From Dehalococcoidia bacterium (GTDB lineage: Bacteria > Chloroflexota > Dehalococcoidia > Lucifugimonadales > UBA1123), in assembly GCA_963666185.1 (NCBI GenBank), contig OY762634.1, positions 1,716,235 through 1,780,234 on the forward strand: DNA of 64,000 nucleotides. The letters are read 5' to 3'. A model generated the notes under the pieces. It worked only from the letters and a program-made list of their open reading frames with translations. It was not told the origin of the DNA and searched no databases. Every line of letters begins with the position of its first letter. Position 1 is the stretch's first letter. Both the position numbers and the translations under genes were made by a program. Below are positions 4,029-52,032 of this stretch, one piece after another.

Positions 4029-4085
4029 TGCCGCTCCCTTTCCGAGGGGTAGGCGCAGAAGATGACCGCGCTTGAAATTGCGATT

Positions 4086-6111: not shown

Positions 6112-7281
6112 TTACATAAGCCTGCTGAAGTGGGGGATGTCGCCTGCGAGGGGTTTGAGGTATTGGATGAAGGCGTCGGTGACGAAGTTGTCTGAGGGGG
6201 AGAGGTATTCTGGGGGCATGGGGCGGACTTTGCCGCCGACCTGGGAGAGGGGGGCGAGTCCTGTTCGGCATTCGTAATCGTCGCCGTCTTCGCGCTCCAG
6301 GGTGATTATTGCGTCGCGGAGGCCGTCGCGGGCGGCGGTGACTGCGGCTCTGCCTACCATCTCGGCTTCGTGGACATCGGATTCGGAGGCGGCCCACACT
6401 AGGGAGCGCTGGATGGTTCCGGGCTTTTCGTAGCGGGCGCGGACTCCGAGGGCGCGACTGACGCGGGCCGCGAGGTAGCGGGCTGGGCCGTCGTGGTATT
6501 CGTGTCCGAAGTCGTCCACGAACCAGGGGTCGGACATTGCCCCGATAACGCCGTCCGCGGAGCGGGAGTTTTCGGAGACGACGGCGACTGCGTATCCATA
6601 CCTGGCGTAGGCGTCCTGGACGCTGGCGACGAACTTGTCTTCGTCCACCAGCGTTTCGGGGACACATACCAGATGGGGAGGGTCGCGCAGGTCGCGCCGG
6701 GCAAGGGCGGACGCGGCGGCCAGCCATCCGGCGTCGCGGCCCATGACCTCGAATATGGTTATGGGAGAGGCGCCGGTGAGCGCCTCGGCGTCGAGGCCGG
6801 AACCGACTACGGCGGTGGCGACGAACCGCGCCGCGCTGCCGTAGCCCGGGCAGTGGTCGGTCAGCACCAGGTCGTTGTCAATGGTCTTGGGGACGTTTAT
6901 CACGGAGAGGTCGTAGCCTATCTCGTCGGCGCGCGTTTGGAGCGTGTGACCGGTCTCGGCGGAGTCGTTGCCGCCGATGATGAACCAGTAGCGGACGCCG
7001 CGCTTGTCGAGATAGTCGAAGATCGGCCCTACGTCGTCGTCCCTGAGTCGGCGGCGGGTGGAGCCTATGGCGGCTCCGGGGGCGTCGGCAACGCTCATCC
7101 AGAGGTCGGGCGGGACCTCGGACAGGTTTATGGCGCGGTCCCGGAGTATCCCTTCAAGTCCGTTGGGCGCGCCGTAGAGGGTTCCCGAACCAGTCTTGGC
7201 GAACTCGGACGCGATTCCGTACAGGCTGCGGTTGAGTACGTGGGTACACCCGCCGGACTGCATTACGAGCGCTGAGTTCAT
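6112..7281 (-). CDS. Phosphofructokinase, PfkA family (probably PPi-dependent)
   Basis: 389 aa. 'FIIGGNDSAETG', 'INVPKTIDNDL' and 'VMGRDAGWLA' are PFK motifs. GGNDS instead of GGDGS (Asp at the Gly104-equivalent position) suggests PPi use. Confidence 0.75.
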   Translation of the reverse strand: MNSALVMQSGGCTHVLNRSLYGIASEFAKTGSGTLYGAPNGLEGILRDRAINLSEVPPDLWMSVADAPGAAIGSTRRRLRDDDVGPIFDYLDKRGVRYWFIIGGNDSAETGHTLQTRADEIGYDLSVINVPKTIDNDLVLTDHCPGYGSAARFVATAVVGSGLDAEALTGASPITIFEVMGRDAGWLAAASALARRDLRDPPHLVCVPETLVDEDKFVASVQDAYARYGYAVAVVSENSRSADGVIGAMSDPWFVDDFGHEYHDGPARYLAARVSRALGVRARYEKPGTIQRSLVWAASESDVHEAEMVGRAAVTAARDGLRDAIITLEREDGDDYECRTGLAPLSQVGGKVRPMPPEYLSPSDNFVTDAFIQYLKPLAGDIPHFSRLM

Positions 7282-21590: not shown

Positions 21591-21788
21591 CTAGGCTGCG
21601 TGGTGTTCGTGCTCGTCGCACTCGTGGATGTCGTGGACGTGGGCATGATGTTCATGCTCGTCGCACTCGTGGACGTCGTGGACGTGACCATGCTCGTCGG
21701 CGTGGTGTTCGTGTTCGTCGCACTCGTGGGTGTCGTGTTCGTGAGCGTGGTGTTCGTGTTCGTCGCATTCGTGGATGTCGCGCGGCAT
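21591..21788 (-). CDS. His/Glu/Asp/Cys-rich repeat peptide (putative metal-binding protein)
   Basis: 65 aa with 23 His and 4 Cys. Four copies of 'HECDEHEHHA'. Strong RBS GGAGGTG 4-5 nt upstream of the ATG. Same strand as, and upstream of, the znu operon. Confidence 0.5.
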   Translation of the reverse strand: MPRDIHECDEHEHHAHEHDTHECDEHEHHADEHGHVHDVHECDEHEHHAHVHDIHECDEHEHHAA

Positions 21789-21880
21789 AAATCACCTCCA
21801 GATTATCTGACCGCAGGTTCCTGAACGGATACTCGATAGACCTGTATTATCTCACATATTGAGTCATTTCACAATGTTTT

Positions 21881-21977
21881 ACACTACTGATAATATATAT
21901 CAAATTGGAAAAACACTACTATCGTATGCCAACGCGCTACTGAGAATGTATATCACCCTGATGAAAAACGCTACTAC
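21881..21977. promoter_or_regulatory. Four direct repeats (A)AAC(A/G)CTACT in an AT-rich divergent intergenic region
   Basis: 'acactactga' 21881, 'aaaaacactacta' 21909, 'gcgctactga' 21934, 'aaaaacgctacta' 21964. Lies between the divergent genes starting at 21788(-) and 22096(+). Confidence 0.3.
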
Positions 21978-22095
21978 CGCAGCCATGTCAGCGCTTCGAT
22001 AGAAGACTTCTTTCCTGGAATCACGAGCTCCGCGCTTTTGCAATTGTTCCTTGTGGTATCCTATTATCCGCTCAGAATGGCGTAGGGGGATATTC

Positions 22096-22740
22096 ATGAC
22101 GACCATTATCGAAAACTCGGAGGACTTTCTCCGCGCGATGCGTGAAAACGACGAATTTCGCCTGGCGGCGAGGCGAGAGTTGCTGAGCGAAGAACTTCTG
22201 GCGCTGCCCCAGCGCTTCGCGGAGTACTCGCAAACCACGGACAGGAAACTGGACAGGCTGAGCGACAACATAGGCGAGGTGAAGGGGCCGTTCATGGAGA
22301 GAGCGGCCCGCGAAGACGCGCCTATCATCGCCAGCGAAATGGGGCTGGTCTGGAAGAAGTCCCTGGAACGGAATGAAGTGGTCGAAATCGCCGATGAAGC
22401 GAACCGAAAAAGTCTGGCGTCCGGTGTCTCGCGTGATAATATGCGAACGTTCCGACGCGCCGACCTGGTGATCGAAGCGGTGGATGATGGCGGGCGTATC
22501 TGCTACATCGCGGTGGAAATCTCCTATACGGCGGATAGCCGGGACACCATCAGGGCAATACGCCACGCCGAGTTCCTCACTCGGTTCACCGGAATTCCCG
22601 CCTACGCGGCCATCTCAAGCGTTCATATAGATAACAGGATCAAGGACATCCTCACGGAGGACAGTCCAACGCCGCTCGACGTCAATCAGGAAACAAAGGT
22701 GTTCTGGTCGAGATTGCCGGAGTTGGAGCCGCCTGAGTAG
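22096..22740 (+). CDS. Hypothetical protein with coiled-coil N-terminus and PD-(D/E)xK-like C-terminal domain
   Basis: Start moved to the ATG at 22096 (AGGGGGA upstream). 'RADLVIEAVDDGGRICYIAVEISYTADSRDTIRAIRHAEFL' has the D...E.S/K spacing of restriction-endonuclease-fold proteins. Confidence 0.45.
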   Translation: MTTIIENSEDFLRAMRENDEFRLAARRELLSEELLALPQRFAEYSQTTDRKLDRLSDNIGEVKGPFMERAAREDAPIIASEMGLVWKKSLERNEVVEIADEANRKSLASGVSRDNMRTFRRADLVIEAVDDGGRICYIAVEISYTADSRDTIRAIRHAEFLTRFTGIPAYAAISSVHIDNRIKDILTEDSPTPLDVNQETKVFWSRLPELEPPE

Positions 22741-23987: not shown

Positions 23988-25285
23988 GCGACCGCCTGCC
24001 GCTGGAAGGAATCCGCGTGCTGGACATGACCGTGGTGTGGGCGGGGCCGTACTGCACTACGCTGCTGGCCGACCTGGGCGCGGAGGTCATCCGCGTCGAG
24101 TCCATACAGGTATTCGGCCCGCCCACTCGCGGCTCCTCGGCGCGTCCGCCGGAGTTCGTCATCCAGAACCTGCCCCCATTCATAGGCGGTATGCCCAACC
24201 GCGAGGGCGGCGCTCGTCCCTGGAACCGCTACCCGCTGTTCAACGCCCACGCGCGCAACAAGCTCAGCATGACCGTTGACCTGCTGAGGCCGGAGGGCAA
24301 GGACATATTCAACCGCCTCGTCGCCATCAGCGACGTCCTCGTCGAGAACAACCCAACCGAGACCATGCAGAAACTCGGCATATCCTACGACGAACTCAAG
24401 AAGATAAATCCCGCCTTCATCATGCTCCGAATGCCCGCCTACGGCAACACCGGCCCCTACCAGAACCACCGCTCCCTGGGCATCCACATCGAGGGCGTCA
24501 TTGGACACAGCCTGCTCAGGGGCTACACCGACCTGGACGCCTCCGCGAACACGCAGGTCTATATGGCCGACGCCGCCGCCGGAGTGGGCGGCGCGTTCGC
24601 CGTCGCCTGCGCCCTCAACCACCGCCGCCGAACCGGGGAAGGCCAACTCATGGAACTCTCTCAGGCCGAGAACGCCGTGCCGTTCCTGGGCCAGGCGTTC
24701 ATGGATTACTCGATGAACGGACGCAGCCAGACCACGCTCGGCAACCGCCACCCCACCGCCCTCCAGGGCGTCTATCCCTGCAAAGGCGAAGACCGCTGGA
24801 TAGCCATAACCATCTTCGACGAACGAGACTGGGAACTCTTCCGAGAGTCCATCGGCAACCCCGACTGGACGCGAGAGCCGCGCTTCGCCACCCACGAACT
24901 CAGGCGCGAGAACCACGACGCCCTCGACGGCCACGTCTCCGACTGGACGCGCCGCCACGACCACCGCGAAGCCATGTCCCTGCTCCAGTCATACGGAGTC
25001 GCCGCCGGCGCCGTCCTCGACCAGCGAGACGCCGCCCAAGACCCGCACCTTGCGGCCCGCGCCATGTTCGAGGAGGCGTACCAGTCCGACGTCGGAACCC
25101 ACCTCTATCCCCGCGCGCCCTTCAAGATGTCCCAGAGCGACGTCCGCATCCGGCGCGGCCCCGTAACCCTCGGCCAGGACAACGAATACGTGTACAAGAC
25201 CCTGCTAAACCTCTCCGACGCCGAATACGCCGCGCTCGTAGAATCCGGCCACATCGGCGACGAGTACGCGGAACACGTGCCATAG
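23984..25285 (+). CDS. Family III CoA-transferase (CaiB/BaiF), second subunit/paralogue
   Basis: The GTG start at 23984 overlaps the upstream stop (GTGA). 'LEGIRVLDMTVVWAGPYCTTLLADLGAEVIRVES'. The ORF-track extension upstream of 23984 overlaps gene 1 and was rejected. Confidence 0.85.
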   Translation: MSDRLPLEGIRVLDMTVVWAGPYCTTLLADLGAEVIRVESIQVFGPPTRGSSARPPEFVIQNLPPFIGGMPNREGGARPWNRYPLFNAHARNKLSMTVDLLRPEGKDIFNRLVAISDVLVENNPTETMQKLGISYDELKKINPAFIMLRMPAYGNTGPYQNHRSLGIHIEGVIGHSLLRGYTDLDASANTQVYMADAAAGVGGAFAVACALNHRRRTGEGQLMELSQAENAVPFLGQAFMDYSMNGRSQTTLGNRHPTALQGVYPCKGEDRWIAITIFDERDWELFRESIGNPDWTREPRFATHELRRENHDALDGHVSDWTRRHDHREAMSLLQSYGVAAGAVLDQRDAAQDPHLAARAMFEEAYQSDVGTHLYPRAPFKMSQSDVRIRRGPVTLGQDNEYVYKTLLNLSDAEYAALVESGHIGDEYAEHVP

Positions 25286-25287
25286 CT

Positions 25288-25422
25288 ACTACAAGCCATC
25301 TCATAAATACCGACACGTCCCTTATGGGGCCCTAATCCCCTCTCCCTTGATGGGAGAGGGCTAGGGTGAGGGTGAAAACCTACGGATCCTACCGAGGGCT
25401 GATGTTTATGAGATAGCTTCTA
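25288..25422 (+). mobile_element. 135-bp MITE-like element, copy 1 (contains a REP1 hairpin at 25337-25375)
   Basis: Near-identical to 51898-52032 (a few mismatches). Terminal inverted repeats 'AGCCATCTCATAAAT' and 'GTTTATGAGATAGCT'. Confidence 0.65.
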
Positions 25423-25453
25423 GTGTGATATTCTATGTAGAAAGGGAGACAGC

Positions 25454-25894
25454 ATGGCAGAGAACTCAAATCTCAACGCCGAATCCCAGTCGGTTCAGAC
25501 CCATGTCACCATCATGCAGGGCGTAATCCAGCGTATGGCCGAAAACAGCCGCTCATGCAAAGTATGGTGCGTAACAATTGTGGCCGCAGTCCTCGTCTTG
25601 GTCGCGAGGACAGAGAAACCCGACCACGCCCTCATAGCCCTCGTCCCCGCAATCCTCTTCCTGATTCTGGACACCTACTACCTGTCGCTCGAACAGAGAT
25701 TCCGCAAATCCTACAACGCCTTCATCGGAACGCTTCACAAAGGCGAGTTGTCCGAGTCAGCCCTATACGAAGTGAAGCCGACCGGTTCTGTATGGCGTCA
25801 TGCTTGGAGAAGCGCGCGGTCGTTTTCGATCTACCCGTTCTACATTCCGCTTGGGTTGACAGTGATAATCGTCTGGCAAGTCGTAATTCCATGA
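25454..25894 (+). CDS. Small 3-TM membrane protein, candidate effector of the adjacent TIR protein
   Basis: 146 aa. RBS AAGGGAGA. Hydrophobic helices at about aa 36-51, 59-77 and 124-145. 'ILDTYYLSLEQRFRKSY' motif after TM2. Low-GC island. Confidence 0.6.
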   Translation: MAENSNLNAESQSVQTHVTIMQGVIQRMAENSRSCKVWCVTIVAAVLVLVARTEKPDHALIALVPAILFLILDTYYLSLEQRFRKSYNAFIGTLHKGELSESALYEVKPTGSVWRHAWRSARSFSIYPFYIPLGLTVIIVWQVVIP

Positions 25895-25921
25895 GCATGT
25901 CTTGAGGAAGGGAGGATAACT

Positions 25922-26491
25922 GTGGCTCAAATCCCAAGACACAACGTTTTCATCAGCTATCACGATGAAGATAGAAAGTACAAAGAGCGATTCATCAGGC
26001 TTATGAATGGACGTATCATTGATAAATCGGTGAACGTTAATGATATAGACGATACTAATATCAAGACAGACACGGTTCGCCGGAAAATTCGCGATGAATT
26101 CATTCGTGATGCAACTGTGACCATTGTGCTGATAGGTCCCTGTACCTGGCAGCGGAAGCACGTGGATTGGGAGATAGGTTCAAGCCTGCGCGATACTAAG
26201 AGAAATTCTAGGTGCGGCTTGTTGGGCATATTGCTTCCCAATCATCCCAACTACAAATCAAAAAGGAGACAACCCAACCGCCGTCTAGTGCCTCCGAGGT
26301 TGGTAGATAATCGTGGTGGTAAAGATCCATACGTGCATATCTATAAGTGGCCGAACCCGTGGGCGCCCGCTCGCATCCAGCAGTGGATTCATGAAGCTTT
26401 TGAAAGAAGGGACGGGATACCGCCCAACAACGGACGACCTCAATTCAAGCGCAATAGAAGCGGCGACTGTTTGCGAGGTTGGCGAAGTTAG
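25922..26491 (+). CDS. TIR-like domain protein (ThsB / DUF1863-like)
   Basis: 189 aa. GTG start with GGGAGG upstream. 'HNVFISYHDEDRKY' and 'VTIVLIGPCTWQRKHVDWEI' parallel 'FFSFHYQD' and 'VTCVLIGSQTFNRRWVRYEI' as I recall them from Bacillus ThsB, including the conserved Glu. 27 nt downstream of the 3-TM gene. Confidence 0.7.
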   Translation: MAQIPRHNVFISYHDEDRKYKERFIRLMNGRIIDKSVNVNDIDDTNIKTDTVRRKIRDEFIRDATVTIVLIGPCTWQRKHVDWEIGSSLRDTKRNSRCGLLGILLPNHPNYKSKRRQPNRRLVPPRLVDNRGGKDPYVHIYKWPNPWAPARIQQWIHEAFERRDGIPPNNGRPQFKRNRSGDCLRGWRS

Positions 26492-26494
26492 ACA

Positions 26495-26782
26495 TCACTC
26501 TTTGTATCCAGCCTCGCGCTCAGCCAGAAATCGCGCCAACGCGCCGGGCGAAGGCTTCCCGGGCTTGAAAGGTCGGCGAGGTTCTCCTGAACTCTTGAGA
26601 AGCCCCCTGTGCCGCAGTTCTTCCATACGCTGCTCCATAGTGTACTTCCGCGGCTCCACCGGACGAATCTCAGCGATGATTTCATCACCGCAAGCTATAT
26701 TCGCCGCCTTGCCATCACGAACGTGCTTCAGAACGCCGGGAAGGTCTGCTTGCAAGTCTTCTATTGTGAACGTAATCTTCAT
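26495..26782 (-). CDS. Orphan Phd/VapB-like antitoxin-like protein
   Basis: 95 aa. N-terminal 'ITFTIEDLQADLPGVLKHVRDGK...IAEIRPV' is a Phd-like fold pattern. No toxin ORF lies downstream (it is convergent with the TIR gene, 3-nt gap). Confidence 0.4.
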   Translation of the reverse strand: MKITFTIEDLQADLPGVLKHVRDGKAANIACGDEIIAEIRPVEPRKYTMEQRMEELRHRGLLKSSGEPRRPFKPGKPSPGALARFLAEREAGYKE

Positions 26783-26855
26783 GCCTCTATGATAACCAGG
26801 CGAAACAGCCCGCGCAACGCCGACTCAGACTCCCCTGACACCCCAGTAGAACCCC

Positions 26856-26890
26856 GGCCCGCGCCGAGCGTTCCTCACCCGGCGCGGGCC
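26856..26890. terminator. GC-rich stem-loop (11-bp stem) after the aldolase gene
   Basis: 'ggcccgcgccg'-13 nt-'cggcgcgggcc', 17 nt past the stop at 26907. No U-tract. Confidence 0.3.
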
Positions 26891-26906
26891 CTAGAACCGC
26901 CTCCGC

Positions 26907-27800
26907 CTAAACCGGCATCGTCCGTCCGCTGTGAGCGCGGCCCGCCGTCGCCGTCGCCTCGCCCAGCGGCCCGCCCGAGGATACCACTCGGACGCCCTCA
27001 TCAATCTTCGACGCCACCGTGTCCGGCGTCGCGCCCTCCAGGAACGCGATTCCCGCGCTCTTGCACGCTTTCCGAACGCGCTCCCTCGCCTCCCACAACT
27101 CGTCCGGCCACGGCTCGCCCGGAGCGTTCTTGTAGCCCATGGACATACTCATGTCGCCCGGCCCCCACTCCGCGAACGCTATGCCCGGCACCTGCGTCGT
27201 AACCTCCACGTTCACCAGCGCGCGGGTGTTCTCTATCTTCAGGCCCAGCATAAGCTCCCCGTCCGGGTTCAGAGGCCACGGATCCGCCTTGTCCAGGTAC
27301 TCATCTATGGACACCCCCCAGATTGGAGCCGCCGACGCCTGCCCCGCCGACCCGCGCCTGCCCACGTCCAACCCCTTGCCCACGCCGATGGTCTGGAACG
27401 GGTAGCGGCACGACTCCACGAACGCCTTAACCGCGTCCGGCGTCTCCGCGTGGCACATAAGGATGCCGTGTACGCCGCGCGCCAGTATCTGCCTGAACTG
27501 CCACGAGTTGGCGCGAACGATGTCCCCGCTCGCGCCGTCCACAGGCACCTCCACCACCACCGCCGGCGTCCGGTGGCCGCTGCTCGTCGGGCCGCCCTCC
27601 ACCAGCCCCTCCATGAACTCTTGCAGGCCCGGCATATCGAAAGAGCCGTGTTCCATGCCCACGTTGATATAGTCCGCCCACGTGGAGGCCATCTCCTTGC
27701 CGCCCTCGCGGCTCAGGTTGGCGCCCGTATGTCCGCCCGTGTAGTAGATAGGCTGATCTTGCGCCAGAAGTTCTATCGCTCGGTTGATTCGACTCATCAT
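26907..27800 (-). CDS. HpcH/HpaI-family aldolase / lyase
   Basis: 297 aa. 'INVGMEHGSFDM', 'VPVDG....IVRANSWQFRQILARGVHGILMCH' and 'IENTRALVNVE' fit the HpcH/HpaI (TIM-barrel, divalent-metal) aldolase pattern. Confidence 0.7.
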   Translation of the reverse strand: MMSRINRAIELLAQDQPIYYTGGHTGANLSREGGKEMASTWADYINVGMEHGSFDMPGLQEFMEGLVEGGPTSSGHRTPAVVVEVPVDGASGDIVRANSWQFRQILARGVHGILMCHAETPDAVKAFVESCRYPFQTIGVGKGLDVGRRGSAGQASAAPIWGVSIDEYLDKADPWPLNPDGELMLGLKIENTRALVNVEVTTQVPGIAFAEWGPGDMSMSMGYKNAPGEPWPDELWEARERVRKACKSAGIAFLEGATPDTVASKIDEGVRVVSSGGPLGEATATAGRAHSGRTMPV

Positions 27801-35160: not shown

Positions 35161-35220
35161 ATCCTCGCTAAATCCTTACTTCGCTTCTCGATCTTACGCG
35201 CCCGGGCGCGATCCCCTGAT

Positions 35221-51897: not shown

Positions 51898-52032
51898 ACT
51901 ACAAGCCGTCTCATAAATACCGACACGCCCCTTATGGGGCCCTAATCCCCTCTCCCTTGATGGGAGAGGGCTAGGGTAAGGGTGAAAACCTACGGATCCT
52001 ACCGAGGGCTGATGTTTATGAGATAGCTTCTA
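51898..52032 (+). mobile_element. 135-bp MITE-like element, copy 2 (REP1 core at 51947-51985)
   Basis: Near-identical to 25288-25422, with the same terminal inverted repeats. Lies 9 nt downstream of rpsG. Confidence 0.65.

Follow-up and report, generated by a model that had tools for sequence, protein, structure and literature searches.

A probable type V Thoeris system, thsF-thsB, in the genome of an uncultured Dehalococcoidia bacterium

Background

The described diversity of Thoeris anti-phage systems was extended in December 2025 by Yirmiya et al. (bioRxiv 10.64898/2025.12.03.692087), who predicted 29 configurations and validated types V to XI. Type V, which combines ThsB with ThsF and has been validated from Bacillus thuringiensis DAR 81934 and Bacillus sp. 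1NLA3E, protects against phage by means of signalling from a TIR protein to a membrane protein. In this study we examined two adjacent genes located within positions 25288-26782 of a 64,000-nt stretch of DNA (hereafter the window) from a metagenome-assembled genome (MAG) of a Dehalococcoidia bacterium, which an earlier, sequence-only reading had interpreted as a Thoeris-like defence module composed of a ThsB-like TIR protein and, in the place of ThsA, a small membrane protein of possible SLATT type.

According to the same preprint (bioRxiv 10.64898/2025.12.03.692087), ThsF is a protein with three transmembrane (TM) segments, annotated as DUF2270 and predicted to form a homo-heptameric channel with positively charged pockets between its protomers; its trigger in the system of B. 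thuringiensis DAR 81934 is 3'cADPR, an isomer of cyclic ADP-ribose (cADPR). The DefenseFinder rule for type V asks for ThsF together with any ThsB, and its examples include loci in which thsF comes first and loci with two ThsBs. Type VI consists of ThsB and ThsG (DUF6650) and uses 2'cADPR as its signal, as illustrated by a phage-defensive system found on a Gammaproteobacteria scaffold, in which addition of 2'cADPR brings about growth arrest. Of the sponge proteins, Tad1 is reported in the preprint to sequester 3'cADPR as well as 2'cADPR, whereas MoTad2 takes up 2'cADPR and leaves 3'cADPR free. Type VII associates ThsB with the SLATT effector ThsH and signals through canonical cADPR, and type II associates ThsB with a Macro-TM effector and the signal His-ADPR. 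Single TIR clusters span several Thoeris types, and the authors themselves warn that effector labels come from cluster representatives. A separate source of comparison is the phage-defence-candidate set of PADLOC, the embedding approach being described in Payne et al. (bioRxiv 10.1101/2024.01.29.577857).

Results

Identity of the two genes

Our analyses support the view that the region probably constitutes a type V Thoeris system against phage, composed of two genes of which thsF comes first and thsB second. The thsF-like gene (gene 1; 25454-25894, plus strand) is an open reading frame (ORF) of 146 aa starting with ATG, and the thsB gene (gene 2; 25922-26491, plus strand) is an ORF of 189 aa starting with GTG. 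The two are co-directional and separated by a 27-nt spacer, exactly as first described. The ribosome-binding sites of GGAG type that had been assigned to each of them can be read from the sequence as GGGAG 7 nt before the ATG (Shine-Dalgarno region 25437-25453, plus strand, conserved in the homologous locus L002) and as GGGAGG 6 nt before the GTG (25903-25921, plus strand), the latter inside the 27-nt gap. So short a gap suggests that the genes form an operon; scans for promoters and terminators gave counts no higher than in shuffled sequence, and an Rfam scan of 25000-27000 matched no RNA family. GC content is 0.43-0.55 across the pair versus 0.64-0.70 in the flanks (0.537 for gene 1 and 0.479 for gene 2, 0.656 for the CoA-transferase gene and 0.666 for the HpcH gene), and the earlier hand counts of 0.383 at 25981-26040 and 0.65 at 24001-24060 proved exact.

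The assignment of gene 1 leads through a Bacillus cereus-group locus, L085. There, the protein P0391 has the same sequence, at 100% identity, as the type V ThsB validated from B. thuringiensis (IMG 2624526259; Tables S1 and S2 of Yirmiya et al.), and 14 nt downstream of its gene lies an ORF of 141 aa (L085:4773-5198) whose position fits the consecutive identifier of the validated effector, IMG 2624526260. The encoded protein, referred to below as the presumed validated ThsF, matches PADLOC PDC-M50A with an E of 1.8e-48. Gene 1 likewise matches all four PDC-M50A models (best PDLC04686, E 1.8e-28) and is 34% identical to the presumed validated ThsF over 125 residues (BLASTP, E 4e-17), which a profile of 101 diverse gene-1 relatives scores at 89 bits (E 2e-20, calculated for a database of 1.84e9 proteins). 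A Terribacillus plasmid homologue beside a related ThsB behaves likewise. An alignment of gene 1, the presumed validated ThsF and eight other family members (A4) contains 13 invariant positions: R27, A29, N31, S32, K36, V43, L72, D73, E80, R84, S123, F129 and Y130. Because of the PDC-M50A match, the 34% identity, the profile score and these 13 shared positions, gene 1 is, by homology, a ThsF-family protein. The family is extensive, comprising at least 1,410 clusters at 90% identity, and its profile matches at least 4,354 clusters at 50% identity (E <= 0.001).

The predicted architecture of gene 1 agrees with that of the type V effector, a small protein with three membrane helices. Hydropathy places membrane segments at about 34-53, 56-78 and 125-146, and the AlphaFold2 model (predicted local distance difference test, pLDDT, 79.6) is all-helical, with helices at 12-53, 56-96 and 127-144, so that the three hydrophobic helices noted at the outset are borne out by both approaches. 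R27, N31, S32, K36, D73, E80 and R84 flank the cytoplasmic ends of TM1 and TM2, and the location of the invariant R27, K36 and R84 near these ends is consistent with the positive inter-protomer pocket of the predicted ring. Gene 1 has no Pfam or NCBIfam match, and in the Pfam scan neither a recognisable ligand-binding domain nor a SIR2, SLOG or Macro domain was detected. A fold search of its model against the PDB returned generic helical bundles only, all with E > 0.4, and a sequence-profile search against PDB chains found nothing.

As a separate observation on the Bacillus locus, the contig that carries L085 (FNYB01000013.1) encodes a presumed ThsF that pipelines relying on PF10028 would miss. 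The system adjoins a DAC-domain gene as well as OLD-TOPRIM/AAA_15 and UvrD-helicase genes, which are Gabija-like by domain content.

Gene 2 matches Pfam ThsB_TIR (PF08937; E 7.9e-17, 61.9 bits versus a cut-off of 21.2), the PADLOC model PDC-M50B (PDLC04688, E 8.7e-12) and ThsB models. With its AlphaFold2 model (pLDDT 85.2; predicted template modelling score, pTM, 0.85), Foldseek found TIR and ThsB structures, namely the B. cereus TIR 8FZ9, ThsB 9B7D, EcThsB 8WCF and 8V6T, and the TIR domains of RUN1 and MyD88. The glutamate E84 in the motif 'HVDWEI' is invariant among 45 homologues and aligns with the 'YEI' glutamate of the ThsB chain 6LHY. The original assignment of gene 2 to ThsB-like TIR proteins, with the glutamate of 'DWEI' in the catalytic position, is thus confirmed by family match, predicted fold and residue conservation, E84 being the predicted catalytic residue.

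The two adjacent genes together match the PADLOC candidate system PDC-M50, gene 1 through PDC-M50A and gene 2 through PDC-M50B (PDLC04686 and PDLC04688, with the E-values given above), as the PADLOC comparison suggested by the sequence-only reading revealed. Since the PDC-M50A models also match the presumed validated type V effector, PDC-M50 is tied to type V Thoeris. Many homologous loci are embedded in type I restriction-modification (R-M) operons, the kind of association that underlies the discovery of such candidates; PDC-M50 differs from type V in being a computational candidate with no described mechanism, and our literature search for 'PDC-M50' found no paper naming it.

Conservation of the gene pair

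The pairing was examined in 80 ThsF loci from species-representative genomes, nearly all of them Dehalococcoidia/Chloroflexota MAGs, with a few from Gemmatimonadota, Latescibacterota and Ca. Spongiisociaceae. A ThsB of the gene-2 type occurs 13-84 nt downstream of thsF in 57 loci, and at least one ThsB_TIR gene is adjacent to thsF in at least 73 of the 80, so that the conservation proposed as a check of the original interpretation is widespread. Two or more such genes are present in 36 loci, and the adjacent TIRs fall into four distinct families, all above the ThsB_TIR threshold. One conserved effector accompanied by variable, often multiple ThsBs is the Thoeris pattern. Type I R-M motifs were found in 32/80 loci, the cassette often lying between hsdM and hsdS, and the GC content of the cassette is below that of its flanks in 75/80, as expected of mobile DNA. 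In L001/L003 and L002 the pair stands between the same CoA-transferase and HpcH-lyase genes as in the window, and syntenic copies are 78-92% (ThsF) and 58-89% (ThsB) identical to those of the window.

Two further features of these loci may be recorded. In L004, whose ThsF is 78% identical, the ThsB match (6465-6689) covers residues 1-75 of 189 and may represent a decayed thsB. A Nmad2-type motif occurs in seven of the 80 loci (L063, L011, L049, L061, L073, L077 and L080); in L063, the locus examined, a Nmad2 protein (L063:6955-7569; PF18753, E 1.2e-66) follows a ThsB of the 'FISHIHEDDEG' family downstream of thsF, and the Nmad2 gene may be an accessory gene or part of a second TIR-linked module.

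Comparison with other Thoeris types

With the validated type V systems the pair has in common a homologous three-TM effector (34% identity), the PADLOC models, the invariant residues and an adjacent ThsB, together with the lack of SIR2, SLOG and Macro domains. It fits the rule of ThsF plus any ThsB, in that a ThsB-type TIR gene retaining its glutamate stands 27 nt from gene 1 in a conserved pairing. The differences concern gene order, thsF then thsB in the window and thsB then thsF in B. thuringiensis; the TIR protein, which in the window has 189 aa, comes from another TIR clade and is not detectably similar to the 252-aa ThsB of B. thuringiensis; and the host, a Dehalococcoidia MAG whose pair is known from its genes alone, whereas the validated systems come from Bacillus.

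Type VI has a related ThsB, of a sister clade (38% identity, E 5e-31, between gene 2 and the ThsB of the Gammaproteobacteria scaffold), but the effector in the window is ThsF instead of ThsG, and no ThsG-like ORF lies next to gene 2. With types VII and II the pair would share the logic of a TIR-made signal that activates a membrane-disrupting effector, although gene 1 contains neither a SLATT nor a Macro domain. As to types I and II, no SIR2-SLOG ThsA or Macro-TM gene is present among the neighbouring ORFs of the window, and in the syntenic, Pfam-annotated locus L001 no SIR2, SLOG or Macro gene lies within 6 kb, in agreement with the initial statement that no ThsA-type gene is nearby. The '3TM' effector class of Yirmiya et al. 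was considered and rejected as a counterpart, its TIRs ('YNLFISHSWSYS…') being unlike gene 2 and no gene-2 motif occurring among the rows listed; this comparison was made via the TIRs of the class alone, its effector sequences not being given in the paper, so that identity of that effector with ThsF is possible.

The ThsB clade of gene 2 was explored further in 80 metagenomic loci fetched via a gene-2 profile, whose TIRs are 47-64% identical to gene 2 and of which 44 were evaluable. A ThsF gene is present in only one of these 44. In 33 metagenomic loci (L094-L162, alignment A5) ThsB is accompanied by a protein family of ~160-230 aa, encoded directly downstream in 32 of them (for example L118:3519-4217). 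This family has no Pfam match, and none of its members matches DUF6650; its profile nevertheless connects it with a TM-containing gene upstream of a Priestia plasmid ThsB (L168:1068-1790; 96.7% probability, E 4.3e-10), and the Priestia ThsB shares 51% identity with a type VI ThsB validated from E. coli. We call the family ThsG-like because the profile comparison links it to a gene beside a type VI-like ThsB, and on these sequence relationships it is probably ThsG. No cross-match was found between the ThsF profile and the ThsG-like family.

In a neighbour-joining tree, 55 ThsF-linked and 34 ThsG-like-linked ThsBs form two pure clades, with a mean identity of 58-61% within each and 47% between them, a split to which taxonomy may contribute, given that the two sets come from different collections. 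No alignment column separates the two groups at 90% consensus in both. Given that individual TIR clusters extend over several Thoeris types, the product of a ThsB is only poorly predicted by its clade.

The gene-2 clade also shows other neighbours and fusions, including a ThsB (P0237) to which a fragment of SLOG cluster 2 (LD_cluster2) is joined, a 721-aa TIR+SLOG protein (type IX-like), a DUF4062-TIR protein and a class III cyclase-like protein; besides P0237, the loci listed for them are L163:3517-5679 (minus strand), L147:1960-2961 and L108:725-1888. On an E. coli plasmid (L167; NZ_CP019257.1, 814-1702) a type VI-like Thoeris system appears disrupted, its ThsB, which shares 98% identity with that validated from E. 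coli ACN001, being split into two ORFs and its ThsG-like gene being reduced to a 90-aa C-terminal piece.

Genomic surroundings

The neighbours of the pair in the window are genes for CoA-transferases, an HpcH lyase, RF-1 and PrmC. Between the CoA-transferase stop codon and thsF, outside the system, lies a 137-bp repeat resembling a miniature inverted-repeat transposable element (MITE; 25288-25424), with 20-nt inverted ends of 90% complementarity and a second full copy, 98% identical, at 51898-52032. Its hairpin core of ~40 bp (CCTCTCCCTTGATGGGAGAGGGCTAGGGTGAGGGTGA) occurs at least 14 times in the 64-kb window against 0 expected, copies being located at 35214, 37016, 40011, 42509, 42619, 48939, 49003, 51534, 51802, 52526, 52602 and 27908, and a further one at 4084 on the minus strand; the copies are nearly always on the plus strand. 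The core is also present in the Chloroflexota loci L004, L010, L015, L050, L062 and L068. L002, whose ThsF is 92% identical, also carries the pair here but without the element; its unoccupied site reads 'TTAGCTCCTAGTGTGATATTC', and the counterpart in the window reads 'ATAGCT[element]ATAGCTTCTAGTGTGATATTC'. Since L002 carries the pair with an empty site, the element was inserted recently, after the pair was in place. The MITE with which the low-GC island had been said to begin is therefore a real element, but not the border of an island.

On the other side, and likewise outside the system, a convergent ORF of 95 aa (26495-26782, minus strand) is conserved full-length in L002. It has no Pfam, NCBIfam or PADLOC match, and a counterpart of its C-terminal half lies immediately upstream of a PIN gene in L001/L003; no PIN relic was found beside it, nor any PIN gene in the window or in L002. 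The ORF may encode an antitoxin whose partner, a PIN toxin, has been lost. Its former description as a Phd-like antitoxin did not find support in any family match, and the antitoxin label derives from synteny with the PIN gene in L001.

Elsewhere in the window, a second dip in GC content (21650-22100, 0.42-0.48, within 21650-22740) is followed by an ORF of 229 aa (22051-22740, plus strand) with no significant Pfam, PADLOC or NCBIfam match.

Discussion

The interpretation of the locus as a Thoeris-like defence module stands with regard to the ThsB-type TIR protein and to a membrane protein that takes the place of ThsA. What did not hold is the SLATT effector, gene 1 being a ThsF homologue, and the statement that the architecture had not been characterised, since PADLOC-DB v2 (2023) lists PDC-M50 and ThsB+ThsF was validated as type V in December 2025. 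By analogy with the validated Bacillus homologue, from which we infer signalling, membrane toxicity and oligomerisation, ThsB (189 aa, with a TIR domain, Glu84 and a conserved C-terminal extension) would sense phage infection and convert nicotinamide adenine dinucleotide (NAD+) into a signal of the cyclic ADP-ribose type. ThsF (146 aa), predicted to cross the membrane three times and to form a ring-shaped homo-oligomer, would then bind this signal on its cytoplasmic face and disrupt the membrane, leading to growth arrest or death before the phage cycle is completed.

Several points weigh against the assignment to type V. That the L085:4773-5198 protein is the validated ThsF we infer solely from consecutive IMG identifiers and gene order. 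The label given to ThsF in the preprint, DUF2270 (PF10028), has no match in gene 1 at E <= 10, which falls below the gathering threshold, and it is matched weakly by only 14 of 101 gene-1 relatives (best E 0.0012); the presumed validated B. thuringiensis ThsF shows no DUF2270 match even at E <= 10, and DUF2270 was for this reason dropped as a criterion for ThsF. No similarity could be detected between gene 2 and the validated type V ThsB, and in metagenomes ThsBs of the gene-2 type (47-64% identity) adjoin ThsG-like genes and not ThsF. The pair in the window is surrounded by metabolic genes and does not belong to a defence island. For one of the validated type V systems, 3'cADPR did not act as a trigger (bioRxiv 10.64898/2025.12.03.692087), and, given a ThsB from a sister clade, the signal and the ligand of ThsF in the window may differ from those of the validated case.

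Different scenarios might alternatively explain the presence of the pair. One is that it represents an inactive relic, or a pair unrelated to defence, inherited vertically among metabolic genes in this Dehalococcoidia lineage. The common CoA-transferase/HpcH-lyase site in L001/L003 and L002, the lack of a defence island in the window, the apparent loss of a PIN partner by the neighbouring antitoxin-like ORF and the truncated ThsB match of L004 all point in this direction; we nonetheless consider it unlikely, because both ORFs are intact and preceded by ribosome-binding sites, all family-invariant residues are kept, E84 included, and the cassette lies elsewhere inside type I R-M loci. Moreover, the syntenic copies have diverged (ThsF 78-92%, ThsB 58-89% identity) while their ORFs stayed intact, which would agree with continued selection.

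In bacteria, a TIR domain can itself be an effector that depletes NAD+. The pair might accordingly be a non-signalling abortive-infection module in which the TIR protein is a toxic NADase and the membrane protein its sensor, anchor or regulator, as would agree with the lack of a recognisable ligand-binding domain in gene 1 and with the caveat of Yirmiya et al. for unverified types. This seems quite improbable, for in the validated homologous system added 3'cADPR is toxic only when the system is present and a signal-sequestering sponge protein lowers defence (bioRxiv 10.64898/2025.12.03.692087), and the occurrence of one ThsF with several ThsBs per locus fits multiple sensors acting on one effector, not multiple effectors. 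Finally, the former proposal that the membrane protein is a SLATT-family pore effector, of a type VII-like Thoeris or in the style of CBASS, to which the existence of TIR+SLATT systems such as type VII (Yirmiya et al.), the general resemblance of small helical membrane proteins beside TIR genes and a weak SLATT_6 match in one of the 101 diverse relatives (E 0.0077, with no other SLATT match among them) might lend some weight, is very improbable and largely refuted at the sequence level by the absence of any SLATT match at E <= 10 in gene 1 and 33 close relatives and by the strong homology to ThsF and PDC-M50A, the fold search being uninformative.

If the type V assignment is retained, the relationship of gene 2 to type VI ThsBs raises the matter of the signal. 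We tentatively suggest, as a possibility to which we give clearly less credence than to its opposite, that the large Chloroflexota branch of ThsF senses a signal other than the 3'cADPR of the validated Bacillus ThsF, for example 2'cADPR or an undescribed ADPR derivative. Should this be true, ThsF would constitute a minimal membrane receptor family with diversified ligand specificity, and a protein of ~146 aa would rank among the smallest receptor-effectors known to respond to a cyclic ADPR isomer.

Conclusions

The pair is in all likelihood a further member of type V Thoeris, which was already a PADLOC candidate in 2023 and was validated in a preprint of December 2025, after which the finding will be unsurprising to specialists. 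It assigns a probable function to two hypothetical genes of an uncultured Dehalococcoidia genome, and it links the PADLOC candidate PDC-M50 with the catalogue of type V Thoeris. Our results also carry a warning for annotation, in that both gene 1 and the presumed validated ThsF escape detection by Pfam DUF2270. ThsF effectors form a very large family both within and outside the Chloroflexota, and sister clades of one TIR subfamily appear to be wired to unrelated effectors, ThsF on the one hand and ThsG-like proteins on the other, a wiring that could show the co-evolution of signal specificity and effector choice.

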